From an uncultured Eubacteriales bacterium (GTDB lineage Bacteria > Bacillota > Clostridia > Oscillospirales > Oscillospiraceae): DNA of 64,000 nucleotides. The stretch is from the NCBI GenBank assembly GCA_900549545.1, contig URPA01000001.1:27275-91274 (forward strand), written 5' to 3'. How positions within the stretch are numbered: the first letter of the stretch is position 1; the number at the start of each line of letters is the position of its first letter. Of this stretch, positions 348 to 23,277 are shown piece by piece. A model generated the notes under the pieces. It saw nothing but the letters and a program-made list of their open reading frames with translations, ran no database searches and was not told where the DNA came from. The translations under genes and the position numbers were made by a program.

Positions 348-376
348 TAAAATTTGGGGCAACCGTTAATTCGCAC

Positions 377-4083: not shown

Positions 4084-4148
4084 AACGTAACTATCGACAG
4101 TTCATGAAAACCCCTTGAAAGTCAAGAAAAAAGGAAAATATATCACCG

Positions 4149-4180
4149 AAACCCCGTCAATAAAAGGCGGGGTTTATTAT
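4149..4180 (+). terminator. rho-independent terminator after the endolysin
   Basis: Stem aaaccccg/cggggttt (8 bp) with an 11-nt loop, followed by a T/A-rich run. Confidence 0.55.
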
Positions 4181-4191
4181 TTAAAAAAATA

Positions 4192-4241
4192 TAACATATT
4201 CCGGAATATATATTGACATATTCCGGAATATGTTATATAAT
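4192..4241 (+). promoter_or_regulatory. consensus sigma-70-type promoter (TTGACA - 17 bp - TATAAT) embedded in two direct copies of a 14-bp perfect palindrome, atattccggaatat. Putative operator.
   Basis: TTGACA at 4213-4218 and TATAAT at 4236-4241, with an exact 17-bp spacer. Palindrome copies lie at about 4196-4209 and 4219-4232 and overlap the -35 element and the spacer. Confidence 0.65.
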
Positions 4242-4298
4242 AAAGACAGTTAAGGAAGACTTAACGAATACATGGGCAAGCATAGAAAGGAGAACAAC

Positions 4299-4430
4299 AT
4301 GAGCGAAATGGATAAAAAGGAAATAAAAGAAGTCATAGAATGGTGTGACGAAAAGGGGCATAGCGAACATGAAATCTTAGAATTGATAAGACGAATTGTC
4401 GACGCGAAGCCGCGAGAAGAAAATGAATAA
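4299..4430 (+). CDS. hypothetical 43-aa protein, below the ORF-track length cutoff
   Basis: ATG at 4299 lies 7 nt after a GGAG-type Shine-Dalgarno (aaaggagaacaac). The product is MSEMDKKEIKEVIEWCDEKGHSEHEILELIRRIVDAKPREENE. It is the first gene downstream of the operator-promoter. Confidence 0.45.
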   Translation: MSEMDKKEIKEVIEWCDEKGHSEHEILELIRRIVDAKPREENE

Positions 4431-4511
4431 GAAATAAGGGACACAGAAAGGGCGGTGGACTTGCCAAAGCCGCCCGATCCGTTAAATTCATTATAAAAGG
4501 AATAAGACAAA

Positions 4512-4733
4512 ATGGCAAGAGCAAAGAACGAAGAGTTTAACCAGATTAAATATCAGAACGAATTTAAGAAGGCAAATTATGATCGCGTGGAAATCCTTGT
4601 GAAAAAAGGAGAAAGGGCAATTATAAAAGAAATAGCAGCAGCAGCAGGACAAAACGTAAGTGAATATATAAATCAGGCGATAAAAGAAAGAATGGAACGC
4701 GATCAGCGCATGACGGCAGAAGAACAGGAATAA
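4512..4733 (+). CDS. ribbon-helix-helix (CopG/Arc/MetJ-like) DNA-binding protein
   Basis: 73 aa. The pattern RVEILVKKGERAIIKEIAAAAGQNVSEYINQAIKERM shows a beta-strand followed by two helices, typical of RHH proteins. Confidence 0.6.
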   Translation: MARAKNEEFNQIKYQNEFKKANYDRVEILVKKGERAIIKEIAAAAGQNVSEYINQAIKERMERDQRMTAEEQE

Positions 4734-4806
4734 TAAAAAGGACTATATAACAACGGGCGCCGGCCTTTCCAATCTGGAAGGGATAGCGCCCGCTGTGGTT
4801 ATATAG

Positions 4807-5796
4807 TTATCCTTCAAGTACAAGATCATAGAATACATTTTCGGAAAGTATTTCTATGTCGTGGCCTTTGAGGATCAGATCTTCGGCCTTTTTCTGCTTG
4901 TTGCTTTTCCCATCCTTGATAGACTGGCAAAAGTCATTATTACCCAAAATTAAATAGTTCGTTTTCTTCGTGACATTATCGCCAACAGAACCGCCAAAAT
5001 CAACGACTAATTGCATAGCGTCTTTACGCGACATTTTTTCAAGTGTTCCAGTGAACACACACACTTTACCAAAAAGCGGGTGAGAGGTATCGAAAGAAAT
5101 GTTTTCCGTAGAAATATCTTTAGCGTGCAGTTCGCTTCTTTTACTGGATAATTTGAAATCTTCGAGACTTTGTCCGGTGGCTAAAATATCGGCTTGCAAT
5201 TTTTCAAAAATGGCGTTGCATATTTCACAATCAACGGCCGCCCTATGAGCGCCGGCGGTAGAAATTCCGTAATGATCGGCAACGGTTGCTTGCTTATGAT
5301 TTTTTAGACCAGGAAGAATTTTCCGCGCGATCCGCATAACATCAATAAAGGAGTTTGACAAAATAAGCGAGCGACAGTTCAGAAGATTGTCATATAAAAA
5401 GTTAATATCGAAGTTGACGTTATAGCCAACAATAAGATCGGAACCAACGAAATTATAAAATTTTTGCATAGTTTCTGAAATATCCGGGGCGCTTTTCAAC
5501 ATATCGTTCGTAATGCCTGTAAGTGAAGTTATGTATTCGTCGATAGGTTCGGAAGGCTTCACAAGTGTTGAAAAAGTACCGATATTTTGGCCGGAAGAAT
5601 ATTTCATGGCCGAAATTTCAATAATTTCACAGTAACGCGGATCAAGGCCGGTCGTTTCAATGTCGAGTACGGTATAAGTAGAAGGAAAATCTATAACGCT
5701 TTTCCCCTTACCTTTTCGCACGACTTTTTCACGCGATCCGTCGGAAGTGGTGATATACGGGCGTCCGTCTTCGTCAATACCAATAGAAATAAACAT
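4807..5796 (-). CDS. DEDDh 3'-5' exonuclease (DnaQ/epsilon-like) fused to a C-terminal BRCT domain
   Basis: Exo I motif VLDIETTGL, Exo II YNVNFDINFL and Exo III HRAAVDCE give an intact DEDDh set. The C-terminal GKVCVFTGTLEKMSRKDAMQLVVDFGGSV...NYLILGNN segment resembles the LigA-type BRCT domain. Confidence 0.75.
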   Translation of the reverse strand: MFISIGIDEDGRPYITTSDGSREKVVRKGKGKSVIDFPSTYTVLDIETTGLDPRYCEIIEISAMKYSSGQNIGTFSTLVKPSEPIDEYITSLTGITNDMLKSAPDISETMQKFYNFVGSDLIVGYNVNFDINFLYDNLLNCRSLILSNSFIDVMRIARKILPGLKNHKQATVADHYGISTAGAHRAAVDCEICNAIFEKLQADILATGQSLEDFKLSSKRSELHAKDISTENISFDTSHPLFGKVCVFTGTLEKMSRKDAMQLVVDFGGSVGDNVTKKTNYLILGNNDFCQSIKDGKSNKQKKAEDLILKGHDIEILSENVFYDLVLEG

Positions 5797-5879
5797 ATTT
5801 TGTTCCCCCTTGCGGTTAGATTTTTAAGGGCAGCAGGTAGAAAAGTTCGCGTTGCTGACCTTTAGCACAATTTTAGAAA

Positions 5880-5924
5880 CTTTATGTGTTAAAGTCAAGA
5901 AAGTTTCTGAACATTAACACATAA
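5880..5924. promoter_or_regulatory. inverted-repeat operator in the divergent intergenic region
   Basis: A perfect 12-bp inverted repeat: tttatgtgttaa at 5880-5891 and ttaacacataaa at 5913-5924. An inner inverted repeat, agaaacttt / aaagtttct, lies between them. The right arm overlaps the XRE Shine-Dalgarno. Confidence 0.55.
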
Positions 5925-5938
5925 AGGAGCCGCAACGA

Positions 5939-6187
5939 ATGAAAATATATTCATACAGGGGAAAGAAGAACCTTTCCGGTGATAAAATCAGGGAAGCCAG
6001 ATTGAAACAACGCCTTTCACAATCTGATTTAGCGGCAAAAGTACAGATTGCAGGCGTGACACTTGAAAGGGATAGCATAAGCCGGATCGAGATAGGAACC
6101 CGCTTTGTCACTGATTATGAATTAAAAATTTTTGCAAAAGTTTTACACGTAAATGTGGAATGGTTGTTGGAAGAAACCGAAGAATAA
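5939..6187 (+). CDS. XRE-family helix-turn-helix transcriptional regulator
   Basis: 82 aa with an HTH_3 pattern (LKQRLSQSDLAAKVQIAGVTLERDSISRIEIG). Confidence 0.75.
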   Translation: MKIYSYRGKKNLSGDKIREARLKQRLSQSDLAAKVQIAGVTLERDSISRIEIGTRFVTDYELKIFAKVLHVNVEWLLEETEE

Positions 6188-6220
6188 CGCCGGGGCTATA
6201 ATGGCCGCGGCGTTATTTTT
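6186..6220 (+). terminator. rho-independent terminator after the XRE gene
   Basis: Stem aacgccg/cggcgtt with a GC-rich interior, followed by ATTTTT. Confidence 0.5.
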
Positions 6221-6235
6221 GAAAGGATCGAAGCC

Positions 6236-7276
6236 ATGAGACATTTTTACCACCTGACACATGATGATAGAATAAAAATTGAAGCACTTTTGAAAGAAAA
6301 ACACACACCGAAAGAAATTGCAAATAATATCGGTTGCCATATTTCTACAATATATAGAGAACTGAAACGCGGCAGGTATGAACACCGCAATTCTGACTGG
6401 ACAACAGAAGAACGGTACAGTCCAGATATAGCGGACGAAAAATACCGGGAAAATTTGGCCGCAAAAGGTCCGGGGCTAAAAATTGGAAATGATATAGAAT
6501 TAGCGGAGTATATCGAAAATAAGATTGTGAATGAAAAATACTCACCGGGAGCAGTATTAGGAGAAATCAAACACAAGGGAATTACGTTTTCTGTTACAAT
6601 AAGCAAAACGACACTTTATAGTTATATAGACAAGGGAATTTTCCTTCATTTGACAAATAAAGATTTGCCGGTAAAGAAGAATGAAAAAAAGAAATATGAT
6701 AAAGTGCGCAGAACACGGGCGCAAAAGGGCGACAGCATAGAAAAACGCCCGGAAGTAGTAAATACAAGAGAAACGTTCGGACATTGGGAAATGGACACAG
6801 TAGTTGGACTTCGGGGGAAATCGAAAAAATCACTTCTGGTATTAACGGAAAGAAAAACAAGAAAAGAAATCATCATGGAATTAAAACGGCATACGGCCGC
6901 GGAAGTAGTTAAATCATTAAATAAGCTTGAAAGAAAATGGGGAAAAATGTTTTACAAGGTATTTAAAACAATTACCGTTGATAATGGATCGGAATTTGCG
7001 GACTTTGAAGGAATGGAGAAGGCAGCGCGCAGAAAAGGAAGCAGAGTGAAATTATATTATTGTCACCCATATAGCAGTTGTGAAAGGGGGTCAAATGAAA
7101 ATCAAAACAGAATGATCCGGCGGCACGTACCTAAAGGGACAGATTTTGACACGGTGTCCGGCGACACAGTAAAACAGATAGAGATCTGGATCAATAACTA
7201 TCCGCGCCGGTTGTTTAACTATGGAACAGCCGAAGAGCGCTTCAACGAAGAAATGGCAAAGTTAGAAGGTTGTTGA
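6236..7276 (+). mobile_element. IS30-family transposase gene. The inverted repeats of the IS element were not resolved.
   Basis: 346 aa with an N-terminal HTH. The DDE region reads GHWEMDTV ... TVDNGSEF ... NENQNRMIRR, as in IS30 transposases. Confidence 0.8.
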
Positions 7277-7390
7277 ATATGCACAAAAAAGCAGAATGGA
7301 AATTGTGAAAAAGAGAGAACACAAAAACCAGTGATATTTTTCGCATTTAACGCTTGACTTTTTATTTTGAAAAATTTTGCCGAAAAATGA

Positions 7391-7419
7391 TTGACAAATC
7401 ATAAATCATCCTTTATAAT
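7391..7419 (+). promoter_or_regulatory. consensus promoter for tRNA-Leu
   Basis: TTGACA at 7391-7396, a 17-bp spacer, and TATAAT at 7414-7419. Confidence 0.55.
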
Positions 7420-7449
7420 AACCTACGTTGCTTGCGAGAGCAGCGTAAC

Positions 7450-7533
7450 GCAGAAGTGGCGGAATTGGCAGACGCGCACGGTTCAGGTCCGTGTGGTAGT
7501 AATACCTTGTGGGTTCGACTCCCATCTTCTGCA
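7450..7533 (+). tRNA. tRNA-Leu(CAG), class II with a long variable arm. CCA is not encoded.
   Basis: Hand-folded. The acceptor arms GCAGAAG and CTTCTGC pair. The anticodon loop is ttCAGgt. A long variable arm is present. The T arm reads GTGGG-TTCGACT-CCCAT. Confidence 0.75.
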
Positions 7534-7544
7534 CTGGTTCATGG

Positions 7545-7575
7545 AACAGGAAGCTGAATGGCTTCCTGTTTTTGC
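7545..7575 (+). terminator. rho-independent terminator after tRNA-Leu
   Basis: Perfect 10-bp stem aacaggaagc/gcttcctgtt followed by TTTTT. Confidence 0.7.
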
Positions 7576-7748
7576 GTTCTCCGTTACTTTTCGGAGTATG
7601 ACTGAATATGATGCATTTGCAACAGACAAATTCCACCATAAGAGGTAAAGTTTTGATAGTAATTTAGTAGGAAATGGTATATACTGTAAGTTGTGGCTTA
7701 AAATAAGCAGTACAGTGTGTGAAAGAAAAGAAGAGAGGAAGGAACATC

Positions 7749-8486
7749 ATGCTTACTTTAGAGAATCTCTCCTTTGATGTGAATGATGAAAAAGGAGAAA
7801 TAGGAATCATCAAAGATATAAGCTTTACAGTGGACGACGGTAAGTTTGTGGTCATAACAGGCCCCAACGGCGGCGGTAAGTCCACCACGGCTAAATTAAT
7901 CATGGGAATTGAACGCCCCACAGGAGGACGCATCCTCTTTGACGGGCAGGATATAACAGATATGAGCATTACGGACAGGGCCAACCTGGGTATCAGCTTT
8001 GCGTTCCAGCAGCCGGTCCGTTTTAAGGGCGTGCAGGTAATTGATTTGCTCCGCCTGGCAGCCAGGAAGAAGCTGACGGTATCGGAGGCCTGTCAATACC
8101 TGTCCGAGGTGGGGCTCTGCGCCAAGGACTATATCAGCCGCGAGGTCAATGCCAGCCTGTCCGGCGGCGAGCTCAAGAGAATCGAGATTGCCACTGTCAT
8201 TGCCAGGGCTTCCAGGCTTTCCGTGTTTGACGAGCCGGAGGCAGGCATTGATTTGTGGAGCTTCCAGAATCTGATTCAGGTGTTTGAGCGCATGAGGCAG
8301 AATACCAACGGCTCCATCCTGATTATATCCCACCAGGAGCGGATTCTCAACATTGCGGATGAGATTGTGGTGATTGCGGACGGCAAGGTAGTGAACCAGG
8401 GGACCAGGGATGAAATTATGCCGCAAATCATGGGCACTGCGTCCGCGGTGGATGCCTGCAGTAAATTTTATGAGACAGCGCAGTGA
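7749..8486 (+). CDS. sufC: Fe-S cluster assembly ATPase SufC
   Basis: ABC ATPase with a Walker A motif GPNGGGKST and the signature LSGGELKR. Start chosen at 7749, after a GAGGAAGG Shine-Dalgarno. Confidence 0.8.
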   Translation: MLTLENLSFDVNDEKGEIGIIKDISFTVDDGKFVVITGPNGGGKSTTAKLIMGIERPTGGRILFDGQDITDMSITDRANLGISFAFQQPVRFKGVQVIDLLRLAARKKLTVSEACQYLSEVGLCAKDYISREVNASLSGGELKRIEIATVIARASRLSVFDEPEAGIDLWSFQNLIQVFERMRQNTNGSILIISHQERILNIADEIVVIADGKVVNQGTRDEIMPQIMGTASAVDACSKFYETAQ

Positions 8487-8503
8487 GGGGAGGAGTGAGC
8501 GAT

Positions 8504-9424
8504 ATGGCAGACAGCATCCAGGAGAGAATATTAATGGAAGTGGCCGACCTTCACGGTGTTCCGGAGGGGGCCTATAATATAAGGGCCAACGGCCAGACAG
8601 CCGGCCGTAATACAACGGCCAATATAGACATTGTTACAAAGACAGATAAGCCGGGCATTGACATACGAATCAAACCAGGCACCAGGAACGAGAGCATACA
8701 CATTCCCGTGGTGGTCAGCGCCAGCGGATTAAAGGAAATGGTATATAACGATTTCTTTATCGGTGAGGATTCGGATGTGGTCATCGTGGCGGGCTGCGGT
8801 ATCCATAACTGCGGGGACCAGGATTCAGAGCATGACGGAATCCACCGCTTTTTTGTGGGAAAGAACGCCAGGGTCAAATACGTGGAAAAGCACTACGGAG
8901 AGGGCGACGGCAACGGCAGGCGCATCCTGAATCCGGGCACAGAGGTCTACATGGAGGAAAACAGCTACATGGAGATGGAGATGGTCCAGATTGAGGGTGT
9001 GGACTCCACCAACAGGACCAATTCCGCGGAGCTGGCGGCAGGAGCCAAGCTCATTGTGCGTGAGCGTCTCCTGACCCATGGCAGCCAGAATGCAGAGAGT
9101 ACTTACATTGTAAACCTGAACGGGGAGGATTCCAGCGCGGATGTGGTGTCCCGTTCTGTTGCAAAGGATACCTCCAGGCAGACCTTTAATTCCAAAATCG
9201 TGGGCAATGCCAAGTGCAGCGGACATACGGAGTGCGACGCCATCATCATGGACGATGCCAGGATATTGGCAATTCCCGGATTGATTGCCAACAACATTGA
9301 CGCTGCCCTGATTCATGAGGCAGCCATAGGCAAGATTGCAGGGGAGCAGATTGTGAAGCTTATGACCCTGGGCCTTACGGAGGAAGAGGCGGAAGCCCAG
9401 ATTGTCAATGGCTTCTTGAAATAG
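8504..9424 (+). CDS. Fe-S cluster assembly protein, short form of the SufB/SufD family
   Basis: The C-terminal segment HEAAIGKIAGEQIVKLMTLGLTEEEAEAQIVNGFL matches the conserved C-terminus of SufB/SufD. It lies immediately downstream of sufC. Confidence 0.7.
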   Translation: MADSIQERILMEVADLHGVPEGAYNIRANGQTAGRNTTANIDIVTKTDKPGIDIRIKPGTRNESIHIPVVVSASGLKEMVYNDFFIGEDSDVVIVAGCGIHNCGDQDSEHDGIHRFFVGKNARVKYVEKHYGEGDGNGRRILNPGTEVYMEENSYMEMEMVQIEGVDSTNRTNSAELAAGAKLIVRERLLTHGSQNAESTYIVNLNGEDSSADVVSRSVAKDTSRQTFNSKIVGNAKCSGHTECDAIIMDDARILAIPGLIANNIDAALIHEAAIGKIAGEQIVKLMTLGLTEEEAEAQIVNGFLK

Positions 9425-9548
9425 TCAGACAGAACAATCCAACATGCAAGAGAAGCTGCTGCGGCCCAACAGGCCGCAGCTTGCGTATGTACCGGCGCAG
9501 ATGATGGGGCGGTACAGCAGCATTATTATGATACAGGGGGATAAAATC

Positions 9549-10844
9549 ATGGGGGAAAATCGTGAGGGAAGGGCTGCTGCCCTTCTGCCTATTCTGGTAT
9601 TTCTGCTGATTTTCTTGGGCTCCGGGTTCATCACCGGGGATTTTTACAGCATGCCGGCCATTGTGGCCTTTTTGATTGCACTTTTAGCGGCCTTTGCGCA
9701 GAACCGGGAGCTGGGCTTTTCGGAAAAGATAAGGCTGGCCGCCCAGGGGGTAGGGGATGAAAATATCATTACCATGTGCCTTATATTCCTGGCGGCAGGC
9801 GCCTTTACGGGAGCTGTGAAGGCAGCGGGCGGCGTGGATTCCACGGTTAACCTGGGGCTTTCCATCCTGCCTTCCAACGTGGCAGTGGCAGGGCTGTTTC
9901 TGATTGGGTGCTTTATCTCCATTTCCATGGGAACATCCGTTGGCACCATCACGGCCCTGGCGCCCATTGCAGTGGGAATCAGCCAGAAAACAGGGTTTTC
10001 CATGGCTGTCTGTGCAGGGGCCGTGGTGGGCGGGGCCATGTTCGGGGATAACCTGTCCATGATTAGCGATACCACCATAGCAGCGGTAAAGACACAGGGA
10101 TGCGAGATGAAGGATAAGTTCAGGGAGAATTTCCTCATCGTGCTGCCGGCCGCCATTGTAACGGTTCTTTTGTTCCTGGTCCTGGGAAAGGATGCCTCGT
10201 TTCAGATGCAGGGCAGCCTTGATTACAACCTGTTCCGGGTGGTGCCCTATCTGGTGGTGCTCATTGGCGCGCTGGCAGGGGTGAACGTATTTCTGGTCCT
10301 CATGGCAGGCACGGTGCTGTCCCTGATAGCAGGAGTGGCCACGGGAGCCTTTGGACTGGGGGAAATGTTCACCCATGTGGGCCTGGGTGTGACAGGCATG
10401 TATGACATCACGGTGATATCTGTGATTGTGGCCTGCATCGTTGCCCTGGTAAAGGAGTACGGAGGCATTGCCTTTATCCTTTCGTTCATCAGGAAGAGAA
10501 TCAGCGGGGAAAGGGGAGGGGAGCTTGGAATCGCTGCCCTGGCCCTGCTGGTGGATATGTGCACGGCCAACAATACGGTGGCCATTGTCATGGCAGGCCC
10601 CATAGCAAAGGAAATCAGCGATGATTTCGGCGTGACGCCCCGGCGTTCCGCCTCCCTTCTGGACATGTTCAGCTCCATGGGACAGGGACTGATTCCTTAC
10701 GGCGCGCAGCTTCTGGCGGCAGCCAGCCTCACAGGGCTGACGCCCTTTGAAATCATTCCCTATTGTTTTTATCCCATCCTCATGGGAGTCAGCGGGCTGA
10801 TATTCATATTCATTAAAAAGAGACATGGAAAGGTACTGGTATGA
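9549..10844 (+). CDS. Na+/H+ antiporter NhaC-family membrane transporter
   Basis: Polytopic membrane protein with an NhaC-like pattern. Start chosen at 9549 after an AGGGGGA Shine-Dalgarno. The ORF track offers an alternative start at 9444. Confidence 0.6.
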   Translation: MGENREGRAAALLPILVFLLIFLGSGFITGDFYSMPAIVAFLIALLAAFAQNRELGFSEKIRLAAQGVGDENIITMCLIFLAAGAFTGAVKAAGGVDSTVNLGLSILPSNVAVAGLFLIGCFISISMGTSVGTITALAPIAVGISQKTGFSMAVCAGAVVGGAMFGDNLSMISDTTIAAVKTQGCEMKDKFRENFLIVLPAAIVTVLLFLVLGKDASFQMQGSLDYNLFRVVPYLVVLIGALAGVNVFLVLMAGTVLSLIAGVATGAFGLGEMFTHVGLGVTGMYDITVISVIVACIVALVKEYGGIAFILSFIRKRISGERGGELGIAALALLVDMCTANNTVAIVMAGPIAKEISDDFGVTPRRSASLLDMFSSMGQGLIPYGAQLLAAASLTGLTPFEIIPYCFYPILMGVSGLIFIFIKKRHGKVLV

Positions 10845-12169
10845 AGACAAAAAATCAATGGGCAAGTAAACTTGGATTTATTATGGCAACCGCCGGGGCT
10901 GCCATAGGACTGGGGAACCTGTGGAAGTTCCCCTATCTCATGGGACGCAACGGAGGGGCTTCCTTTCTGGTGGTATACTTATTTTTCATCTGCATCCTGG
11001 GCGTGCCGGTGATGATGCTGGAGATGTCCCTGGGCAGAAAGACCCGGCACGACCCTGTGCAGGCATACGGGGATATCCATCCCAATGCCAGGATAGCCGG
11101 GGTATTCGGAGTGGCGGCAGCCTTTCTGATTCTGTCCTATTACAGCGTTATCGGGGGCTGGATTATTAAGTATATTGTGAGTTATGGAACCACCTTCCAC
11201 GCCCCGGAGGATTTTACGGCGTTTATCAGCGCCCCGGTGGAGCCGGTGTTCTGGCATTTCCTGTTCCTGTTTATGACAACGGCTGTCTGTTATCACGGCA
11301 TCAGCGGCATTGAGAATGTCAGCCGAATCATGATGCCCCTGCTTTTCCTGCTGCTGATTGTAATTATTGTGAGGAGCGTAACCCTGCCGGATGCTGCCCT
11401 GGGCCTTAAGTTCATCTTCATTCCCAGCAGCGCGGCCTTTAACATGAAGGCGGTCAGCGCGGCCCTGGGGCAGGTGTTCTACTCCCTGAGCCTTTGTATG
11501 GGAATCACCATTACCTACGGAAGCTATCTGGGGGATAAGGAAGACATACCCAGAAGCTGCGCCAGCGTGGCGGGACTTGACACCATCATTGCGGTGATGG
11601 CAGGCATAGCCATATTTCCGGCCGTGTTTTCCTTTGGACTGGAGCCGGGACAGGGACCCGGCCTTATATTCGGCACGCTTCCCAAAGTATTTTCCTCTAT
11701 TAAAGGGGGGACGTTCTTTGCAATCCTGTTTTTTGCACTGGTGCTGTTTGCTGCTGTGACCAGCGCCATTGCCCTGTTGGAGGTGGTGGTTTCCTTCGCA
11801 GTGGACAGCCTTAAGTGGACCAGGAAAAAGGCTACGGTCATCCTGGGTGTCCTGATTTTCCTGACAGGGGTGCCCAGCGCCCTGTCCTTCGGTGTTCTGG
11901 GGGATGTGACCGTACTGAATTACAGTGTGTTTGATTTTGTGGGAATGGTTACGGACAACATCCTCCTTCCATTTGGGGGCCTGGCCATGTGCTATTTCAT
12001 TGGATGGAAATGGAATCCCCAGTATCTGGTGGATGAAGTGGAGAAAAACGGAGTCACCTTCAGGCTTAAAAAGCTTTGGATATTCTGTATACGGTTCCTC
12101 ACCCCAATTCTGGTGGCAGTTGTCACCCTGACTGGATTTGCCAGTATTTATTCTATTGTGCGCGGATAG
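10841..12169 (+). CDS. sodium-dependent transporter, neurotransmitter:sodium symporter (SNF/NSS) family
   Basis: N-terminal GLGNLWKFPY signature. It overlaps the upstream stop (ATGA). Confidence 0.8.
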   Translation: MKTKNQWASKLGFIMATAGAAIGLGNLWKFPYLMGRNGGASFLVVYLFFICILGVPVMMLEMSLGRKTRHDPVQAYGDIHPNARIAGVFGVAAAFLILSYYSVIGGWIIKYIVSYGTTFHAPEDFTAFISAPVEPVFWHFLFLFMTTAVCYHGISGIENVSRIMMPLLFLLLIVIIVRSVTLPDAALGLKFIFIPSSAAFNMKAVSAALGQVFYSLSLCMGITITYGSYLGDKEDIPRSCASVAGLDTIIAVMAGIAIFPAVFSFGLEPGQGPGLIFGTLPKVFSSIKGGTFFAILFFALVLFAAVTSAIALLEVVVSFAVDSLKWTRKKATVILGVLIFLTGVPSALSFGVLGDVTVLNYSVFDFVGMVTDNILLPFGGLAMCYFIGWKWNPQYLVDEVEKNGVTFRLKKLWIFCIRFLTPILVAVVTLTGFASIYSIVRG

Positions 12170-12202
12170 GAATACATATATGGGTAGAGGAGGTGCGCCC
12201 AT

Positions 12203-13954
12203 ATGGAGAATCAGAAACGGGAAAATCTGCTGAACCTGGCCCTGGATGCCACGGAGGAGGAACGGCTGAAATCAGTGAACCTGAATGTGGGGTATGACCC
12301 TGAGGAGAAAACCTGGGAGCTTATTGTCAGGTACAATGGTTCCCTTGCGTCCCTCCGGGACACAGGCATACGGGTGGATGAACTGGCGGCGGGATATGCG
12401 GTCCTGGTAGTGCCGGAGAGTCTTATGGAACAGGTCAGCAGCATGGAGGAAATTGTATACATTGAGAAACCAAAGAGGCTGTTCTTTGCCAGCAACATGG
12501 CAAGGGCAGCCTCCTGTCTGAGTACGATTCAGACCAGCACCGGGGCAGGGGCCGGCGGGGCGGGAGCAGGCGTCATAAGCGGCCTGGAGTCCGGCCTTAC
12601 GGGAAGGGGCGTGCTGGTGGCGGTTATTGACTCCGGCATTGATTACTTTCATCCGGATTTCAGGAACCCGGACGGGACCACCCGCATCGGCCTGCTGGCA
12701 GACCAGGACAGGGACCGTATTTACACCAGGGAGGAAATCAATGCAGCCCTAGAAACCGGAAGCCGGTCCTCTGCCCTGGCCCTGGTTCCCTCCACAGACC
12801 CCAGCGGACACGGCACAGCAGTGGCGGCCATAGCGGCCGGCAACGGCAGGGAGGGGAACGGCGTATACCGGGGGGTTGCCTATGAGAGCGAGATTATGGT
12901 GGTGAAATTGGGAACGCCCCTGACGGACAGCTTTCCGCGGACCACCCAGCTGATGAAGGCCCTGGATTTGGTGGTACGGCGGGCCCTGGACATGAACCGG
13001 CCCCTGGCCGTAAATCTGAGCTTTGGAAATACCTACGGCTCCCACGACGGGACCAGTCTGCTGGAAACATTCATTGACGACATGTCAAACATTGGGAGGA
13101 ACGTCATTGTGGCCGGCACGGGAAATGAGGGAACCGGGGCAGGGCACAGGGCAGGCAGGCTGGTTATGGGACAGGAGGAAAATGCGGAGCTGTCCATTGC
13201 ACCTTATGAGACAGGGATGGGGGTACAGCTGTGGAAGTCCTATGTGGACCAGTTTTCCATCCGTCTGATTACGCCCTCAGGGGAGATGATAGGGCCCATT
13301 GACAGCCGCCTGGGGCCCCAGACGCTGCGTTACGGCGGAACACAGATACTGATTTATTATGGTAAGCCCAGTCCCTTCAGCCGGGCCCAGGAGGTATACT
13401 TTGATTTCCTGCCTGTCAGGGATTATCTGGACAGCGGAATATGGACCTTCCGCCTGACGCCGGAGCGGATTGTGACCGGACAGTACGATATGTGGCTGCC
13501 TTCCAGGGGAATCCTGAACCCGTCCACCCGTTTCTTAAGGCCGGTGCCGGAAACCACCCTGACCATTCCCTCCACTGCGGCCAATGTGATATCCGTGGGA
13601 GCCTACGATGACTCCTACCGCGCCTATGCGGATTTTTCCGGACGCGGCTTCACCCGCCAGACAGGGCAGGTAAAGCCGGATTTGGCAGCTCCGGGAGTGG
13701 ATATTGTCACAGCCAGAAGGGGCGGCGGATACGAGGCGGTGACAGGGACCTCCTTTGCGGCCCCCTTTGTCACGGGCAGCGCGGCCCTGCTGATGCAGTG
13801 GGGCATTCTGCAGGGAAACGACCCCTTTCTTTACGGCGAGAAGGTAAAGGCGTATTTTACCAGAGGCGCCAGGCATCTGCCGGGGTATGATGTGTGGCCC
13901 AATGAAAGGCTGGGGTACGGCACCCTGTGCGTGAGGGACAGTCTGCCGGTGTAG
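12203..13954 (+). CDS. subtilisin-like serine protease (peptidase S8), possibly a Csp-type germination protease
   Basis: Catalytic triad contexts VIDSGID, HGTAVAA and GTSFAAP. The 583-aa size and an N-terminal pro-region resemble clostridial CspB/CspA. Confidence 0.7.
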   Translation: MENQKRENLLNLALDATEEERLKSVNLNVGYDPEEKTWELIVRYNGSLASLRDTGIRVDELAAGYAVLVVPESLMEQVSSMEEIVYIEKPKRLFFASNMARAASCLSTIQTSTGAGAGGAGAGVISGLESGLTGRGVLVAVIDSGIDYFHPDFRNPDGTTRIGLLADQDRDRIYTREEINAALETGSRSSALALVPSTDPSGHGTAVAAIAAGNGREGNGVYRGVAYESEIMVVKLGTPLTDSFPRTTQLMKALDLVVRRALDMNRPLAVNLSFGNTYGSHDGTSLLETFIDDMSNIGRNVIVAGTGNEGTGAGHRAGRLVMGQEENAELSIAPYETGMGVQLWKSYVDQFSIRLITPSGEMIGPIDSRLGPQTLRYGGTQILIYYGKPSPFSRAQEVYFDFLPVRDYLDSGIWTFRLTPERIVTGQYDMWLPSRGILNPSTRFLRPVPETTLTIPSTAANVISVGAYDDSYRAYADFSGRGFTRQTGQVKPDLAAPGVDIVTARRGGGYEAVTGTSFAAPFVTGSAALLMQWGILQGNDPFLYGEKVKAYFTRGARHLPGYDVWPNERLGYGTLCVRDSLPV

Positions 13955-14131
13955 GGCATTGCTTCTATGACCTGTGACACATCCACTAGGAAATAGTTAG
14001 AATTTATGATATAATGTGAGCATTAGGCAGCTGTTTACAGGCCTGATGCTCTTTTGCTTACGCAATATTTGAAATTTTTGTAGTAAAAACATGAATCCGA
14101 CAATATAATAATAGAGATAGGGAGTGGATGG

Positions 14132-15142
14132 ATGAATATCAGGGAGTCACTGGAGGCATTGGAAGAATCGTACATGAGTCCCTTTGCGTCCCTTAGCAGC
14201 AGGACCAGGGGACGGGACAAGCCGGAGGAACTGTGCGATATGCGGCCTGAGTACCAGCGGGACAGGGACCGCATCCTGCACTCCAAGGCATTCCGGCGGC
14301 TGAAGCACAAGACCCAGGTGTTCCTGGCGCCTGAGGGGGACCACTACAGAACCAGGCTTACCCATACCCTGGAGGTGTCCCAGATTGCCCGCACCATTGC
14401 CAAGACCCTGCGGCTCAACGAAAGCCTGACAGAGGCCATTGCCCTGGGCCATGACCTGGGCCATACGCCCTTTGGCCATTCCGGCGAATACATACTGAAT
14501 CAGATATGCGAGGACGGCTTTACCCACTATGAGCAGAGCGTGCGCATTGTGGAGGTGCTGGAAAAGGACGGGAAGGGACTGAACCTGACCTGGGAGGTAC
14601 GGGACGGCATACGCAACCACAGGACCTCCGGCCACCCATCCACCCTGGAGGGCTCTATTGTCCGGCTGTCGGATAAGATTGCCTATATCAACCACGACAT
14701 AGACGACGCCATCCGCGCCAGGATGTTCACGGAGCATGAGCTGCCCAGGGTGTATACCGATGTGCTGGGCCACAGTGTCCGGGAACGGCTCAACAACATG
14801 ATTCACGACATCATACTGAACAGCATGGACAAACCGGCCATCACCATGTCGGAGGGAATGGAGGAGGCCATGCAGGGCCTGCGCAAATGGATGTTTGACA
14901 ATGTGTACAAGAATGATATACCCAAGGCAGAGGAGGGAAAGGCCCAGAACATGATTACCCAGCTCTATGAGTACTATATGGGGCATGTGGATAAGCTGCC
15001 GGTGGAGTATGTGCTTCTTATGGTCAATAAGGGGGAGAAGAAGTCCCGGGTGGTGTGCGATTACATTGCCGGTATGAGCGACATCTATGCCATTGACCAG
15101 TTTGAGGAATTATTTGTTCCGAAGCGGTGGAACGTGTACTGA
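14132..15142 (+). CDS. dgt: dGTP triphosphohydrolase-like HD-domain protein
   Basis: HD motif in HTLEVSQIARTIA ... GHDLGHTPFGH. Position upstream of dnaG-sigA, as in the Firmicutes macromolecular-synthesis operon. Confidence 0.8.
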   Translation: MNIRESLEALEESYMSPFASLSSRTRGRDKPEELCDMRPEYQRDRDRILHSKAFRRLKHKTQVFLAPEGDHYRTRLTHTLEVSQIARTIAKTLRLNESLTEAIALGHDLGHTPFGHSGEYILNQICEDGFTHYEQSVRIVEVLEKDGKGLNLTWEVRDGIRNHRTSGHPSTLEGSIVRLSDKIAYINHDIDDAIRARMFTEHELPRVYTDVLGHSVRERLNNMIHDIILNSMDKPAITMSEGMEEAMQGLRKWMFDNVYKNDIPKAEEGKAQNMITQLYEYYMGHVDKLPVEYVLLMVNKGEKKSRVVCDYIAGMSDIYAIDQFEELFVPKRWNVY

Positions 15143-15240
15143 CGGGCCGGACCGGCCGGTTCCGGGCCGCGGCGGGCTGGGGTTAAACAGCCTGTGCCGT
15201 AAAGATACACATTATAAAGATACAGAAGGGAGATTATTGC

Positions 15241-17142
15241 ATGTACTATCCCGATGAAGTCATAGAAGAAGTGAGAATGAAGAATGACATCGTGGACGTG
15301 ATTTCAGGATACGTGAAACTGCAGAAAAAGGGGGCCAACTACTTTGGTCTGTGCCCCTTCCACAATGAGAAGTCCCCGTCCTTTTCCGTATCGCCGGGGA
15401 AGCAGATGTATTACTGCTTTGGATGCGGGGCAGGTGGGAATGTCATCACCTTTCTGATGGAATATGAAAATTTTACCTTCCAGGAGGCGCTCCAGTCCCT
15501 GGCGGACAGGTCCGGAGTGAACCTGCCAAAGATGGAGTACAGCCGCGAAGCACGGGAGCAGGCGGAGCTGAGGGCCAGGCTTTTAGAGGTGAACAAGCTG
15601 GCTGCCAACTATTTCTATTATCAGATGAAACAGCCCCAGGGCAAGCCGGCCTATGATTATTTCCACCTCAAAAGAGGTTTGGCGGATGAAACCATGGTCC
15701 GCTTCGGACTGGGATATTCCAATAAGACCAGCGATGATTTGTACCGCTACCTGAAAGGAAAGGGCTACGAGGACAGTTTCCTCAAGGACACCGGCCTGGT
15801 GACGCTGGAGGAGCGGGGAGGAAGGGACAAGTTCTGGAACCGCGTCATGTTCCCCATTATGGATGTGAACAACCGTGTCATTGGCTTTGGGGGCCGCGTC
15901 ATGGGAGACGGGGAGCCAAAATACCTGAATTCCCCGGAGACAAAGCTGTTTGACAAGAGCCGCAACCTATACGGCCTGAATTATGCCAGGCTTTCCAGGG
16001 AAGGCTATCTATTGATTTGCGAAGGCTACCTGGACGTCATATCCCTGCACCAGGCAGGCTTTACCAATGCAGTGGCGTCCCTGGGCACTGCCTTTACCAG
16101 CCAGCACGCCAATGTGCTGAAACGGTATACGGACCAGGTAATCCTTACCTATGACAGCGACGGGGCCGGGGTGAAGGCGGCGCTGAGAGCCATTCCCATT
16201 TTAAAGGAAGTGGGGATGTCCATCAAGGTGCTGAACATGAAGCCCTATAAGGACCCGGACGAGTTTATCAAGAACATGGGGGCGGATGCATTCCGCCAGA
16301 GGATTAAGGAGGCTAAGAACAGCTTCCTCTTTGAGGTGGATGTGCTGCGGAGGGGATATGAGATGGATGACCCGGAGCAGAAGACCAGGTTTTATCAGGA
16401 GACGGCAAGGAAGCTGCTTCAGTTTGGCGAGGCCCTGGAGAGGGAAAACTATCTCCAGGCAGTGGCCAGGGAGCAGATGATTCCGGCGGATGAGCTGCGA
16501 GGCCTGGTAAACCGCATGGGCATGTCCATGGGCCTTAAGGCCGGCGAGAGCCTGAGCCATTCCGGCCGCGTGGTATCAAAGGATGCAGAGGAAGAGGGAT
16601 ACAGCCAGGAGACAGGCCGTTTTGCCGGCCATGGACACCAGGAGGACGGGGGAAACGGATACCCAGGAGGCGGATATTCCGGAAACGGGCTTTCGGGCAG
16701 CCGCAAACCCAGGCGGCCGGATAAGGAGGATGGAATCCGCCGTTCCCAGAGACTGCTTCTGACCTGGCTCATAGAGACACCGGCCCTGTTTGAGAAGATA
16801 GAGGGCATCATAACAGCAGATGATTTTGTGGAGGATTTGTATCATCAGGTGGCACAGATGGTATTTGACGGACACAGGGAGGGAAAATTAAACCCAGCAG
16901 CCATACTCAGCCGGTTTATCAATGATGAGGACCAGTACAAGGAGGTGGCGGCCCTGTTTAATGCCAGTTTAAAGGAATCCCTGAACAATGAAGAACAAAA
17001 GAAGGCATTTTCGGAGACTGTGATGAAGGTCAGGAAGAACAGCCTGGATGTGGCCAGCCGCAATGCAAAGGATATAACCCAGTTACAGGAGATTATAAGG
17101 CAGCAGGCAGCCCTGAAGCAGCTGCACATCTCCCTGGATTAA
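15241..17142 (+). CDS. dnaG: DNA primase DnaG
   Basis: Zinc-finger motif CPFHNEKSPSFSV ... CFGCG, plus TOPRIM and C-terminal helicase-binding domains. Confidence 0.9.
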   Translation: MYYPDEVIEEVRMKNDIVDVISGYVKLQKKGANYFGLCPFHNEKSPSFSVSPGKQMYYCFGCGAGGNVITFLMEYENFTFQEALQSLADRSGVNLPKMEYSREAREQAELRARLLEVNKLAANYFYYQMKQPQGKPAYDYFHLKRGLADETMVRFGLGYSNKTSDDLYRYLKGKGYEDSFLKDTGLVTLEERGGRDKFWNRVMFPIMDVNNRVIGFGGRVMGDGEPKYLNSPETKLFDKSRNLYGLNYARLSREGYLLICEGYLDVISLHQAGFTNAVASLGTAFTSQHANVLKRYTDQVILTYDSDGAGVKAALRAIPILKEVGMSIKVLNMKPYKDPDEFIKNMGADAFRQRIKEAKNSFLFEVDVLRRGYEMDDPEQKTRFYQETARKLLQFGEALERENYLQAVAREQMIPADELRGLVNRMGMSMGLKAGESLSHSGRVVSKDAEEEGYSQETGRFAGHGHQEDGGNGYPGGGYSGNGLSGSRKPRRPDKEDGIRRSQRLLLTWLIETPALFEKIEGIITADDFVEDLYHQVAQMVFDGHREGKLNPAAILSRFINDEDQYKEVAALFNASLKESLNNEEQKKAFSETVMKVRKNSLDVASRNAKDITQLQEIIRQQAALKQLHISLD

Positions 17143-17160
17143 CAGCATTTCATAGGAAGG

Positions 17161-18294
17161 ATGGACCAAGTTATGGAAGGGACGGACGTGTTTGAGGAGA
17201 AACTGGCAGGACTTCTGGAGGAAGCCAAGAAAAAGAAAAACGTATTGGAATACCAGGAGGTCATGGATTATTTTGGTCAGGAACCGCCGGCAGCACAGCA
17301 GTTGGACAGGCTGTTTGAGTTCCTGGACCAGAATAAGGTGGATGTCATCCGCATGGGGATAGAGGAAGAGCTGGACCCGGACCTTTTCATCGAGGAGGAG
17401 ATGGAGCTGGATGAAGAGGAAGAAATCGATGTGGAGCACCTGGATCTGTCGGTTCCCGAGGGCGTCAGCCTGGAGGACCCTGTGCGTATGTATCTGAAGG
17501 AGATTGGTAAGATTCCCCTTCTGGGCATGGAGGATGAGGTGGAGCTGGCCAAGAAGATGGAGCTGGGCGACCCGGAGGCCAGGAAGCGCCTGGCAGAGTC
17601 CAACCTGCGCCTGGTGGTCAGCATTGCCAAGCGGTATGTGGGCAGGGGAATGCAGTTTTTAGACCTGATTCAGGAAGGAAACCTTGGGCTCATCAAGGCA
17701 GTGGAGAAATTTGACTATACCAAGGGGTATAAGTTCAGTACCTACGCCACCTGGTGGATTCGCCAGGCCATCACCAGGGCCATTGCGGACCAGGCCAGGA
17801 CCATACGGATTCCGGTTCACATGGTGGAGACCATCAACCGTCTGGTGCGCACCTCACGCCAGCTGCTGCAGGAGCTGGGCCACGAGCCGTCGCCCGAGGA
17901 GATCGCGCACAAGCTGCATCTCCCGCTGGAGAAGGTCGAGGAGGTCATGCGCATCGGGCAGGAGCCCATCTCACTCGAGACGCCGGTCGGCGAGGAGGAT
18001 GACAGCCACCTCGGCGACTTCATTCAGGACGACGAGGCCGAGGAGCCTGCGGATGCCGCGTCCTATGCCATGCTGCGCGAGCAGCTGGCGGGCGTGCTGA
18101 AGACGCTCACGCCGCGTGAGGAGCGCGTGCTGCGCCTGCGCTACGGCCTGACGGACGGCCGCATGCATACGCTGGAGGAAGTCGGGGAAGAATTTAACGT
18201 CACACGCGAGCGCATCCGCCAGATCGAGGCGAAGGCTCTGCGCAAGCTGCGCCATCCGTCGCGTTCTAAAGTGCTGAAAGACTTTTTAGGATGA
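17161..18294 (+). CDS. sigA: RNA polymerase sigma factor SigA (RpoD)
   Basis: Regions 2 to 4 are present, including [41 protein letters not shown]. Codon usage changes abruptly near 17.88 kb, inside this gene. Confidence 0.9.
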
Positions 18295-18323
18295 CAGCTG
18301 GAACGCCCCTGAAAAAATTTCTC

Positions 18324-18351
18324 TTGACTTTACGGAAAAAATCCGTATGAT
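18324..18351 (+). promoter_or_regulatory. candidate promoter for the orphan ACP gene
   Basis: TTGACT at 18324-18329, a 16-nt spacer, and TATGAT at 18346-18351. A GC hairpin (gcgcg...cgcgc) follows in the 5' leader. Confidence 0.4.
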
Positions 18352-18406
18352 ATAGAGAGGAGAGAGGCGCGACTTTGCAGCGCGTCAAAGACAGGAGCGA
18401 AGAACG

Positions 18407-18637
18407 ATGTTTGAACGGATCACGACATATCTGGCAGAGCAGTTCGATTTCCCGAAGGATTCGCTGCACTGGGATACGACGTTTAAGAGCCTGCAGCTTG
18501 ACTCGATGGACATGGTCGAAATGATGATGGACATGGAAGAAGAGCTCGGCGTGGATTTTGACCAGAACGATATGGCAGAGCTGACCACCATTGGTGAGCT
18601 TGCCGATTACATTGAAAAAAAGCTGAACGAGGGCTGA
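18407..18637 (+). CDS. acyl carrier protein-like (phosphopantetheine-binding) protein
   Basis: 76 aa. The motif LQLDSMDMVEMMMDMEEELG aligns with the ACP DSL serine motif and helix II. Confidence 0.65.
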   Translation: MFERITTYLAEQFDFPKDSLHWDTTFKSLQLDSMDMVEMMMDMEEELGVDFDQNDMAELTTIGELADYIEKKLNEG

Positions 18638-18659
18638 ATCAGGCCGTTCCGGTCTGTGA

Positions 18660-18932
18660 CAAGGTCGCACTAGTCGGGGAGATAGCGGTGCCCTGTGACC
18701 TGCAATCCGCTATAGCAGGGATGAACTCCCATACCCGGGTTCGTGCTGTTTTGCTGTCCGAATAAGCGGTGTTGAGGCATCGGTCTTGCGCAACGGGCTC
18801 CCGTGAACCATGTCAGGCGGGGAACCGAGCAGCATTAAGCGGATCTGTCCGTGTGCCGCAAGGACGCCGCTGCTGAGCTGGCTGTTCGGGAAACGGAAAT
18901 GGTTCCGGATTCAAATATGGGTGTGCGATCTT
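18660..18932 (+). ncRNA. ffs: signal recognition particle RNA, Bacillus-type long form with an Alu domain (scRNA/ffs). Ends are approximate.
   Basis: Matches B. subtilis scRNA as recalled from memory. The segment gtcggggagatagcggtgccctgtgacctgcaatccgctatagcaggg matches the 5' domain. The segment ccatgtcaggcggggaaccgagcagcattaagcgg matches the conserved domain IV. Position upstream of dnaX, as in Firmicutes. Confidence 0.8.
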
Positions 18933-19053
18933 GTCATGGATCGGAATGGACAATAGAACGCGCGGAAGGGACGCCCCTCCCGCGCGTTTTTTGCACCGGC
19001 GCGATTGCAATTTGCGCTGTTTTCGCGTATACTATGCACTGGGAGATGATGAC

Positions 19054-20730
19054 ATGTATCAGGCACTTTACCGCAAATACCGCCCGCAGACCTTTGACGA
19101 CGTCGTCGGCCAGCAGGGCGTGACCCAGACTCTGAAGAATCAGCTCCAGACCGGCCGCCTGAGCCATGCCTATCTGTTCACGGGCACGCGCGGCACCGGC
19201 AAGACGACCTGCGCTAAAATTCTGGCCAAGGCCGTGAACTGCGAAAATCCGCAGGACGGCAACCCCTGCAACCGCTGCGCCGCCTGCCGGAGCATCGATG
19301 CGGGCGCGTGCATGGACGTGCTGGAGATCGACGCCGCCTCGAATAACGGCGTGGACAGCGTCCGCGCCCTGCGCGACGACGCCGTCTATACCCCGGCGGA
19401 GGTCAAAAAGCGCGTGTATATCATTGACGAGGTGCATATGCTCTCAACCCCGGCCTTCAATGCCCTGCTCAAAATTCTTGAGGAGCCGCCGGAGCACCTG
19501 CTTTTCATCCTCGCCACAACTGAGCTTCAAAAGGTCCCGGCGACGATACTTTCCCGCTGCCAACGGCACAGCTTCCGCCGGATAGACAACAAAACCCTCA
19601 CAAGCTACCTTGAGTACGTCGCGGGGGAGGAGCATTTTGACCTGAGCCATGACGCGGCTGAGCTTATCGCCAGAATGGCCGAGGGCGGTGTGCGCGACGG
19701 TCTGAGCCTGCTCGACCAGTGCTCGGCCTATGACAAAATCGACACGCAGGCGGTCTATTCCGCCATGGGCCTCGCGGGCAACCGCAGAATTGCCCAGCTT
19801 TTTGATTATATCTTAAACCATGACACCGCCGCGGCGCTCAATGAGTTTTCCGCAATGTGGATGGATGGGAAGGCCCCGGCCTCACTTTTGCAGGAGCTGG
19901 GGACGCTGCTGCGCGATGTGCTTTTGATGCAGGTCGCGCCGAAGAGCGTTATGGAGCTGGCTTCCGGTGCGTATGACCGAGAGGCGCTCTCCGGCTTTGC
20001 AAAGCGCTGCACCAGAGATGAGCTGCTTTTCGCGGCGCAGACGGTGCAGAATGCTGCCGCCGGGATAAGGGACGCAAAAAATCCGCGCATGGCCGTTGAG
20101 CTCTGCCTTGTGAGTCTCTGCGGCGATTTGGCGGGAGAGAGCGTTGCGGGCCTGAAGGCGCGGATATCCCGTCTTGAAGAGGCTGTCGCCCATGGAATAA
20201 GCGTCCGGCCTGAGGCGGCCCCGGCGGCGGACTATGAGCGCGATATCCCGGGGGAGCCGGAATATGAGCCGGAGGAGCCGATGCCCGTACCGCGCAGATA
20301 TCAGCCGGACGAGGTGGAGTTTGAGCCGCCGGAGGTTTTTATTGAGGAACAGCCGGAGGACGCATTCTTTGACCGCAAGCCCAAGGCGGAAGCGCCAAAG
20401 CCCGTGAGCGCTGACGTTTGGAAGGCTGTGTGCGACGAGGCGGCCAAGGCCCTGCCCATGGAGGTGCGCATGAGCCTCGGCGATGAAAGCCGCATGAGAG
20501 TCTACGGCGAGGGCGATGTGCTGAAAATCGAGGCGCAGAAGGGCTTTTTGCTTGACCGTTTGAAAAGGCTCGGCATTTCCGAGATATTCTCCGCCGCGGC
20601 AAAGACCGTGACCGGGCGGGATATGAACGTGCGCGTGTCTGAGCTTGACGACAGCCCGCGCGAGCAGCGCAGCCTTGATGAGCTCAGGCAGTTTAAGGAA
20701 GTAAGTTTTATAAACACCATAGGAGGATAA
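19054..20730 (+). CDS. dnaX: DNA polymerase III subunit gamma/tau
   Basis: N-terminal sequence MYQALYRKYRPQTFDDVVGQ, Walker A motif GTRGTGKTT, and zinc motif CNRCAACRSI. The 18931 start in the ORF track would overlap the SRP RNA and is rejected. Confidence 0.9.
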   Translation: MYQALYRKYRPQTFDDVVGQQGVTQTLKNQLQTGRLSHAYLFTGTRGTGKTTCAKILAKAVNCENPQDGNPCNRCAACRSIDAGACMDVLEIDAASNNGVDSVRALRDDAVYTPAEVKKRVYIIDEVHMLSTPAFNALLKILEEPPEHLLFILATTELQKVPATILSRCQRHSFRRIDNKTLTSYLEYVAGEEHFDLSHDAAELIARMAEGGVRDGLSLLDQCSAYDKIDTQAVYSAMGLAGNRRIAQLFDYILNHDTAAALNEFSAMWMDGKAPASLLQELGTLLRDVLLMQVAPKSVMELASGAYDREALSGFAKRCTRDELLFAAQTVQNAAAGIRDAKNPRMAVELCLVSLCGDLAGESVAGLKARISRLEEAVAHGISVRPEAAPAADYERDIPGEPEYEPEEPMPVPRRYQPDEVEFEPPEVFIEEQPEDAFFDRKPKAEAPKPVSADVWKAVCDEAAKALPMEVRMSLGDESRMRVYGEGDVLKIEAQKGFLLDRLKRLGISEIFSAAAKTVTGRDMNVRVSELDDSPREQRSLDELRQFKEVSFINTIGG

Positions 20731-20734
20731 AATT

Positions 20735-21079
20735 ATGGCAAAAGGCGGATTTCGCGGGGGCTTCCCCGGCGGCAATCAGATGAACATGGTGCGTCAGGCA
20801 CAGAAAATGCAGCAGGAATTTTTGAAGATGCAGCAGGAGCTCGAGTCCACGGATTTTGAGTTCTCCGCGGGCGGCGGCGCAGTCAAGGCCACTGTCAGCG
20901 GCACCAGAGAGTTCAAGTCCATCGTCATTGACCCCGAGGTCGTTGACCCCGACGATGTGGAAATGCTTCAGGACCTGATTCTTGCGGCTGTCAATGGCGC
21001 GCTCAAGCTCTCCGATGACAAGACAAACCAGTCCATGGCAAAGCTTCAGGGAGGCATGGGCCTGCCCGGCATGTTCTAA
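20735..21079 (+). CDS. ybaB: nucleoid-associated protein YbaB/EbfC
   Basis: 114 aa of the YbaB family. Immediately downstream of dnaX. Confidence 0.85.
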   Translation: MAKGGFRGGFPGGNQMNMVRQAQKMQQEFLKMQQELESTDFEFSAGGGAVKATVSGTREFKSIVIDPEVVDPDDVEMLQDLILAAVNGALKLSDDKTNQSMAKLQGGMGLPGMF

Positions 21080-21220
21080 TAAGCTTATTTATCTGCCCGG
21101 GCCGGTTCTGGCTCGGGCAGAAATACTGCCTGTTTCGACTGCATTTGCGCCGTGATTGTGATAGAAAAAGACATATAACATCGAGCGCGACAGGCATTTG
21201 GCGCAGACAAGGAGGAATAC

Positions 21221-22909: not shown

Positions 22910-22911
22910 CA

Positions 22912-23260: not shown

Positions 23261-23277
23261 AATGTGCGCCTTACGCT

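Follow-up and report, generated by a model that had tools for sequence, protein, structure and literature searches.

A 64-kb gut metagenome contig that is very probably an assembly chimera of three genomes joined inside sigA and dnaX

The stretch of DNA considered here, referred to below as the window, comprises 64,000 nt of contig URPA01000001.1 (positions 27,275 to 91,274 of the forward strand; GenBank assembly GCA_900549545.1, deposited as an uncultured Eubacteriales bacterium), and our subject is the region in which two housekeeping genes, sigA and dnaX, lie next to a short intervening segment. Chromosomal genes on the plus strand occupy positions 7365-17860 in the order ABC ATPase, SufBD-like protein, NhaC antiporter, SNF transporter, CspB-like subtilisin, dgt (14132-15142), dnaG (15241-17142) and the 5′ two-thirds of sigA, which starts at 17161 or 17173 and ends at 18294. 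A second piece on the same strand (17881-19390) holds the 3′ third of sigA (to 18294), the gene for a 76-aa acyl-carrier-like (PP-binding) protein (ACP, 18407-18637), a large signal recognition particle (SRP) RNA (18665-18928, RF01854, 193.9 bits) and the first 337 nt of dnaX, which begins at 19054. The rest of the window (19425-64000, plus strand) carries the remainder of dnaX followed by ybaB, a GH2 enzyme, nagB, uvrA, recD2, mreB, priA, def-fmt, rsmB, rlmN, a PP2C/PASTA kinase pair, rsgA, smpB, the transfer-messenger RNA (tmRNA), AFOR, Fe-ADH and others. These three pieces match three different organisms, designated sources A, B and C in the order given.

Genes located at 7719-17142 and at 19054-60994 differ strongly in synonymous-codon use, according to per-gene counts and a pooled comparison. 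Among Arg codons (p = 9e-17 over all of them) the fraction of AGG is 0.40 in the former vs 0.13 in the latter and that of CGC 0.20 vs 0.51; likewise, Gly GGA stands at 0.32 vs 0.07 (p = 2e-27), Leu CTG at 0.64 vs 0.35 (p = 2e-19) and Val GTG at 0.59 vs 0.37 (p = 2e-12). The change takes place inside sigA itself: up to nt 17806 its Arg codons number 12 (5 AGG, 2 CGG, 4 CGC and 1 CGT), and from nt 17839 on there are 16, of which 13 are CGC and 3 CGT with neither AGG nor CGG (Fisher p = 7e-4). The best likelihood change-point is codon 230 (nt 17848), with a gain of 35 nats over a one-regime model, a gain matched by just 7 of 20,000 synonymous-codon shuffles.

An initial annotation, made from the sequence alone, had proposed a codon-usage switch within sigA at 17.86-17.90 kb. 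The Arg counts, the change-point and the shuffles confirm the switch and its position is right, since the break in sequence identity described below lies at 17861-17880. Several of the accompanying figures need correction. GC content is 43.6% at 1-7400, 54.3% at 7700-17860 and 55.7% at 17881-64000, in agreement with the proposed value of about 54% for the middle segment but not with about 60% past the switch, as GC reaches ~59-61% merely locally, between ~17.5 and 22.5 kb; the regimes are told apart by codon choice rather than by bulk GC. The dgt gene has 8 AGG, 12 CGG and 6 CGC instead of 8, 10 and 5, and the rise in GC at third codon positions along sigA is real but goes from 72.5% to 84.0% instead of from 69% to 83%. 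Finally, the preference for codons ending in CG ascribed to the first 7.4 kb is clear for Pro alone (CCG 70%) and not for other residues. The step in codon usage is the border between Lachnospiraceae-type usage, rich in AGG, GGA and CTG in source A, and Oscillospiraceae-type usage.

The left-hand chromosomal piece is of an Enterocloster-type Lachnospiraceae. An exact-protein look-up found the DnaG of the window in 55 blocks of a public gene index, and among the contigs read, 21 carry it. Three of these (L081-L083, ENA metagenome contigs of 127-411 kb) have the same gene string as the window at 7.7-17.1 kb and continue past dnaG with a native 374-aa sigA and then trmK, NIF3, PRK and DctPQM. Scaffold L082 differs from window positions 5241-17880 by 1 mismatch in 12,640 nt and L083 differs from the window by 1 in 10,434 nt; both show 0 mismatches over 15000-17880 and then 117 in the next 377 nt (~31%). 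In NCBI, the exact sequences of DnaG and dGTPase go under the names Enterocloster bolteae or unclassified Clostridium. Among the matches listed for SigA in GTDB representative genomes there is no close reference, the best being 55-77% identical. A megablast alignment extended source-A identity as far as 18257, which would put the join at the end of sigA; this placement was dropped because position-wise mismatches are 0 up to 17880 and 31% thereafter.

Judging from these alignments, the passage from A to B (junction 1) falls somewhere inside the 20-nt run AGCTGCTGCAGGAGCTGGGC at 17861-17880 on the plus strand, which encodes QLLQELG in sigma region 3 and is identical in the two sources. The nucleotide sequences of A and B diverge by ~30% even within sigA, where this run is their longest exact match; over the 4.1-kb dgt-dnaG-sigA region it is joint-longest (one of two). 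Contigs of source B are the mirror image of those of source A, with ~30% of positions mismatched to the window up to 17860 and ~99.3-100% identity from 17861. One of them (L167) matches window positions 17861-19424 with 0 mismatches over 1,564 nt, and the 137 C-terminal residues of SigA, used as a query, retrieved a 100% identical protein (P0001); this C-terminal part occurs in 31 blocks of the gene index. The native order in L090-L099 is dgt, dnaG, sigA, the 76-aa ACP-like gene and dnaX. The exact ACP sequence is named Oscillospiraceae bacterium or Faecousia intestinalis by NCBI and UniRef, and we designate source B a Faecousia-like member of the Oscillospiraceae. That ACP sequence is present on at least 1000 contigs.

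A 51-mer spanning junction 1 had 0 matches in metagenome contigs. The control, a 46-mer composed of the shared 20-mer and the B-specific right side, was found in 72 metagenome contigs, none of which has the left flank of A; in 71 of the 72, the 60 nt adjoining on the left match native B with an identity of 95% or more. Those B-native contigs of the 72 that reach far enough have a mismatch density of ~0.30 to the left of 17861-19445, ~0.007 within it and ~0.33 to the right. Unrelated joins occur at the same 20-mer. In L116 (OHME01004159.1) an unrelated left flank is fused to it, and in P0005 an IreB-family N-terminus is fused at ELLQELG to the C-terminal part of SigA, which then changes to another sigA. 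These two cases support the idea that the AGCTGCTGCAGGAGCTGGGC 20-mer may act as a graph hub, and region 3/4 of sigA looks like a hot spot at which misassembly recurs.

Two further observations concern sigA of source B. The proteins P0002 and P0003 also seem chimeric in this gene, changing to source-B sequence at an 11-residue motif. Also, a poly-A tract (CAG AAA AAA ATG) located ~275 nt upstream of the junction-1 20-mer varies from A6 to A10 among assemblies, and tracts other than A7 break the gene into calls of 138 aa and 234 aa (L090-L099). A frameshift or transcriptional slippage was considered and rejected, given the in-frame A7 tract in 62 contigs that were not selected via the truncated protein; the A6, A8 and A10 variants were put down to selection by the query protein. 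The differences in tract length have the look of homopolymer error or variation and not of a programmed frameshift.

A second passage, from B to C (junction 2), lies 1.5 kb beyond the first. It falls somewhere inside the 34-nt run CCCCGGCGGAGGTCAAAAAGCGCGTGTATATCAT at 19391-19424 (plus strand), within the part of dnaX encoding the AAA+ core, so that the B part of the gene amounts to 370 nt when the shared run is included. The run is identical in B and C and is the longest exact match between their dnaX genes. Compared with the window, the source-C contig stretch L084 differs at ~29% of positions over 19054-19390 and at none from 19391 on; all B contigs long enough differ from the window at 19425 and are ~33% mismatched from 19446. 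Because the codon usage of B and C is similar, junction 2 is invisible to a codon-usage reading.

Source C is an uncultured Oscillospiraceae represented by a metagenome-assembled genome (MAG), GCA_902474235.1, whose contig CABRUT010000001.1 was found by an exact YbaB look-up (the YbaB of C is in 115 blocks of the gene index). Three stretches of this contig were compared with the window: L084 (window 19391-31079, 0 mismatches), L102 (31445-52323, 1 mismatch) and L187 (49780-64000, 0 mismatches), for a total of 1 mismatch in ~44.6 kb. The sole part to the right of junction 2 outside these stretches is 31080-31444, inside uvrA. All 941 aa of UvrA agree exactly with a protein recorded in NCBI, Logan and ENA assemblies, on contigs of up to 238 kb, and a further junction at 31080-31444 is therefore not expected. 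Comparison with native contigs disclosed no additional junctions at 1-7.4, 7.4-17.9, 19.4-31.1 and 31.4-64 kb. A cluster-mate of the RpoZ of C is named Oscillospiraceae bacterium.

What precedes dnaX in GCA_902474235.1 is different from what precedes it in the window, namely a different SRP RNA (78.6% identity), small open reading frames and a RhuM gene, with no sigA upstream of dnaX in that contig. This native 5′ end of the C dnaX is found in at least four independent assemblies. A hybrid 77-mer across junction 2 is in none of the fetched loci, including six C contigs and the B contigs long enough to show it. As regards the Logan contigs of C, L087 and L089, which are independent of each other and from short reads, start at the dnaX start codon or no more than 2 nt away, L085 includes 138 nt upstream of dnaX, and L086 and L088 begin inside the gene, which suggests that the region of the SRP RNA and the dnaX 5′ end breaks or tangles assembly graphs for this organism.

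Neither hybrid protein is known from elsewhere. An index of 153 billion gene positions, in which native proteins of A, B and C are common, contains neither the hybrid SigA (of 377 aa, or 373 aa if the source-A start is used) nor the hybrid DnaX (the native proteins counted are DnaG, the SigA C-terminal part and YbaB, with the block counts given above). With regard to recombinant alleles, no exact hybrid protein or junction sequence is present in the collections, near-exact variants not having been searched. Beyond each junction, the independent assemblies of every segment run on with different native sequence.

Taken together, we put the probability at roughly 93% that DNA from three sources was joined at two junctions during assembly, which would make the window an inter-genome chimeric contig, an artefact and not a biological feature. 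The three chromosomal sources are different human-gut bacteria, one of them a Lachnospiraceae (A) and two of them Oscillospiraceae (B and C). The initial annotation had raised the possibility of a chimeric join within sigA, for which there is now support in that native A and B contigs each continue differently and the junction is unseen elsewhere. It had added that the two halves of the window would then come from different organisms, and the left side is indeed nearly identical to Enterocloster-type contigs and the right side to Oscillospiraceae contigs. The location inside sigA held, but the single junction between two sources has to be replaced by two junctions 1.5 kb apart and three sources. 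As for the proposal that the genomes joined were related, they are not closely so: Lachnospiraceae and Oscillospiraceae are different families and ~30% of nucleotides differ even in sigA. Nor did its alternative of an import by homologous recombination fare better, the 1.56-kb middle piece being flanked by two genomes and not by one recipient.

The most likely mechanism is traversal of a k-mer graph, although the traversal itself is inferred. A stool metagenome containing all three organisms would have been assembled into a k-mer (de Bruijn) graph, in which short k-mers shared within the conserved sigA and dnaX would link the paths of the three genomes; the assembler would then have walked from A into B and subsequently from B into C. 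It is known that chimeric contigs can arise when k-mers shared between species connect their graphs (PMC7299287). The joins sit at homologous positions on identical runs, and for this reason the reading frames are kept and SigA and DnaX look coherent in spite of being hybrids, the former being full length with all sigma-70 regions present.

Some considerations weigh against an assembly chimera. The case for it is built on assembled sequences and is indirect, and a homology-dependent recombination would likewise join sequences at the longest shared identical run. In addition, some k = 21 assemblers have nodes slightly longer than the 20-nt run, so the exact graph path is not reconstructable; the sample that was assembled could have contained strain variants in which the shared run was longer. 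Not finding the chimera in public collections is negative evidence, and a very recent or rare natural recombinant would also be missed by them.

These considerations bear first on a genuine recombinant chromosome, in which Enterocloster DNA, a Faecousia-like patch and DNA of Oscillospiraceae C would be combined in one cell with a functional hybrid sigA and dnaX. We regard this as very improbable. It would explain why both joins are in frame, at homologous positions and on the longest identical runs (20 and 34 nt), and neither hybrid protein is truncated or, in the case of SigA, short of a sigma-70 region; both run lengths come near the minimal processing segment of RecA-type recombination. It requires, however, two independent crossovers among three donors of two families in sequences ~30% divergent, and the 0-1 mismatches of each segment to its donor imply that the events were extremely recent. 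A 1.56-kb piece of B would have to lie between two different genomes, and a single chromosome would have to accommodate 17.9 kb or more of A together with 44.6 kb or more of C. Moreover, the C part has 1 mismatch in ~44.6 kb to CABRUT010000001.1, whose native upstream region is different, and the junctions and hybrid proteins are in no other assembly searched. Less credible still is the full consequence, a living gut bacterium that is an inter-family hybrid, formed very recently by recombination at micro-identities of 20 and 34 nt and carrying a chimeric DnaX and a functional chimeric primary sigma factor. Such a sigma factor would combine regions 1-2 and part of region 3 from Lachnospiraceae with regions 3-4 from Oscillospiraceae.

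A more restricted possibility, and one we find just as hard to credit as a recombinant chromosome, is that the artefact is limited to junction 1 and that junction 2 arose naturally, when a strain of C took the block sigA-ACP-SRP RNA-dnaX 5′ end from a Faecousia-like relative through homologous recombination. B and C belong to one family, Oscillospiraceae, and resemble each other in codon usage, and an SRP RNA is located directly upstream of dnaX in both, which makes homologous replacement conceivable; the several Logan contigs of C that end at or near the dnaX start would suggest either variability or graph tangles. On the other hand, the dnaX genes of B and C are ~29-33% different on both sides of the 34-nt run and their SRP RNAs are 78.6% identical. 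The near-perfect match of ~44.6 kb (1 mismatch) is to GCA_902474235.1, a genome that has the native C dnaX 5′ end; the hybrid 77-mer is in no B contig long enough and in 0 of the six C contigs, and the hybrid DnaX is not on record.

That the window is one natural genome, its codon step being an expression-linked or domain-specific bias in sigA or mere variation from gene to gene, can be practically dismissed: highly expressed, conserved gene regions of many bacteria do favour CGC and CGT for Arg, and the sigA 3′ part encodes regions 3 and 4, which are the most conserved, but such a bias is refuted by the different native 3′ third of the source-A sigA (117 mismatches in 377 nt against the window) and by the identity breaks, the change coinciding to the base with a drop from 100% to ~70% identity to native contigs, and genes of low expression show the same contrast (dgt and dnaG vs dnaX and uvrA).

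Seen as an assembly chimera, the window resembles other chimeric contigs from short-read metagenomes in that several genomes are present in one contig, each side is correct on its own and the joins are on short identical stretches in conserved genes. It differs from them by the double join, with a 1.56-kb middle piece of a third genome, and because it crosses families and not strains or sister species on runs of just 20 and 34 nt. Housekeeping genes made mosaic by homologous recombination between related species share with it an abrupt change of affinity and codon usage in an intact, in-frame gene and break-points in runs of identity. Natural mosaics, however, have one recipient on both sides and donors that are usually less than ~10-20% divergent, whereas the window has flanks from different families and donors that are ~30% divergent.

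The hybrid sigA/dnaX contig thus holds no new biology and its value is one of quality control. The parent contig, and any bin or MAG that holds it, mixes three organisms and should be split at 17861-17880 and 19391-19424. Both sigA/rpoD and dnaX are common marker genes; the hybrid SigA and DnaX should be kept out of protein databases, phylogenies and marker-gene sets. Any inference of synteny, horizontal transfer or codon adaptation made across these joins would be wrong. In methodological terms, a careful codon-usage reading can locate a misassembly within a few tens of bases, and it can overlook a second join where the genomes have similar codon usage.

The remaining composition change of the window is of another kind. 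Positions 1-7364, with no strand assigned to the block as a whole, are the end of a prophage that contains part of a diversity-generating retroelement (DGR), lysis genes and an IS30-family transposase. Its features are the bAvd gene of the DGR (21-347), a template repeat (~372-498), the DGR reverse transcriptase (670-1725), a holin (1778-2278), an endolysin (~2275-4083), an RNase_T/BRCT protein on the minus strand (4807-5796) and the transposase (6236-7276). The block ends ~85 nt short of a tRNA-Leu(CAG) gene (7450-7534, plus strand; ARAGORN, Rfam RF00005), where it borders the source-A chromosome. The initial annotation described three regimes, all of which are seen, but the first step is not part of the artefact, as the same boundary is present in the independent scaffold L082, in which the prophage block is contiguous with the source-A genes (the single mismatch over 5241-17880 noted above). 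L081 and L083 are without the block and their matches to the window begin only at 7365 and 7447, respectively. The first switch, at 7.4-7.7 kb, is thus a natural prophage/IS30 boundary in an Enterocloster genome.

Window positions 1-7364 recur at 97.4-98.9% identity in L182-L186, whose chromosomal flanks are of five kinds, and the RNase_T/BRCT protein has entries in 12,914 blocks of the collection. Since it adjoins five different chromosomal neighbourhoods, the prophage end is an actively spreading element in gut Clostridia. This is in line with prophages and genomic islands beside tRNA genes in general: a low-GC block with phage lysis genes, a DGR and an IS30 transposase, present in some host strains (L082) and not in others (L081, L083), with no unusual difference noted. 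This prophage end, its IS30-family transposase included, is extremely common.

Only the 3′ part of the DGR (21-1725) lies in the window, its target gene being beyond the left window edge. Positions 372-498 match, at ~90% identity, a second copy in an mtd-like target gene of related loci (e.g. L183, 15922-16048), as a template/variable pair would give.

Within source C, the tmRNA (56976-57325) was identified from Rfam (RF00023, 151.5 bits) and is absent from the ARAGORN output. It is preceded by smpB (55939-56406) and a peptidyl-prolyl isomerase gene, in that order, which is an ordinary arrangement.

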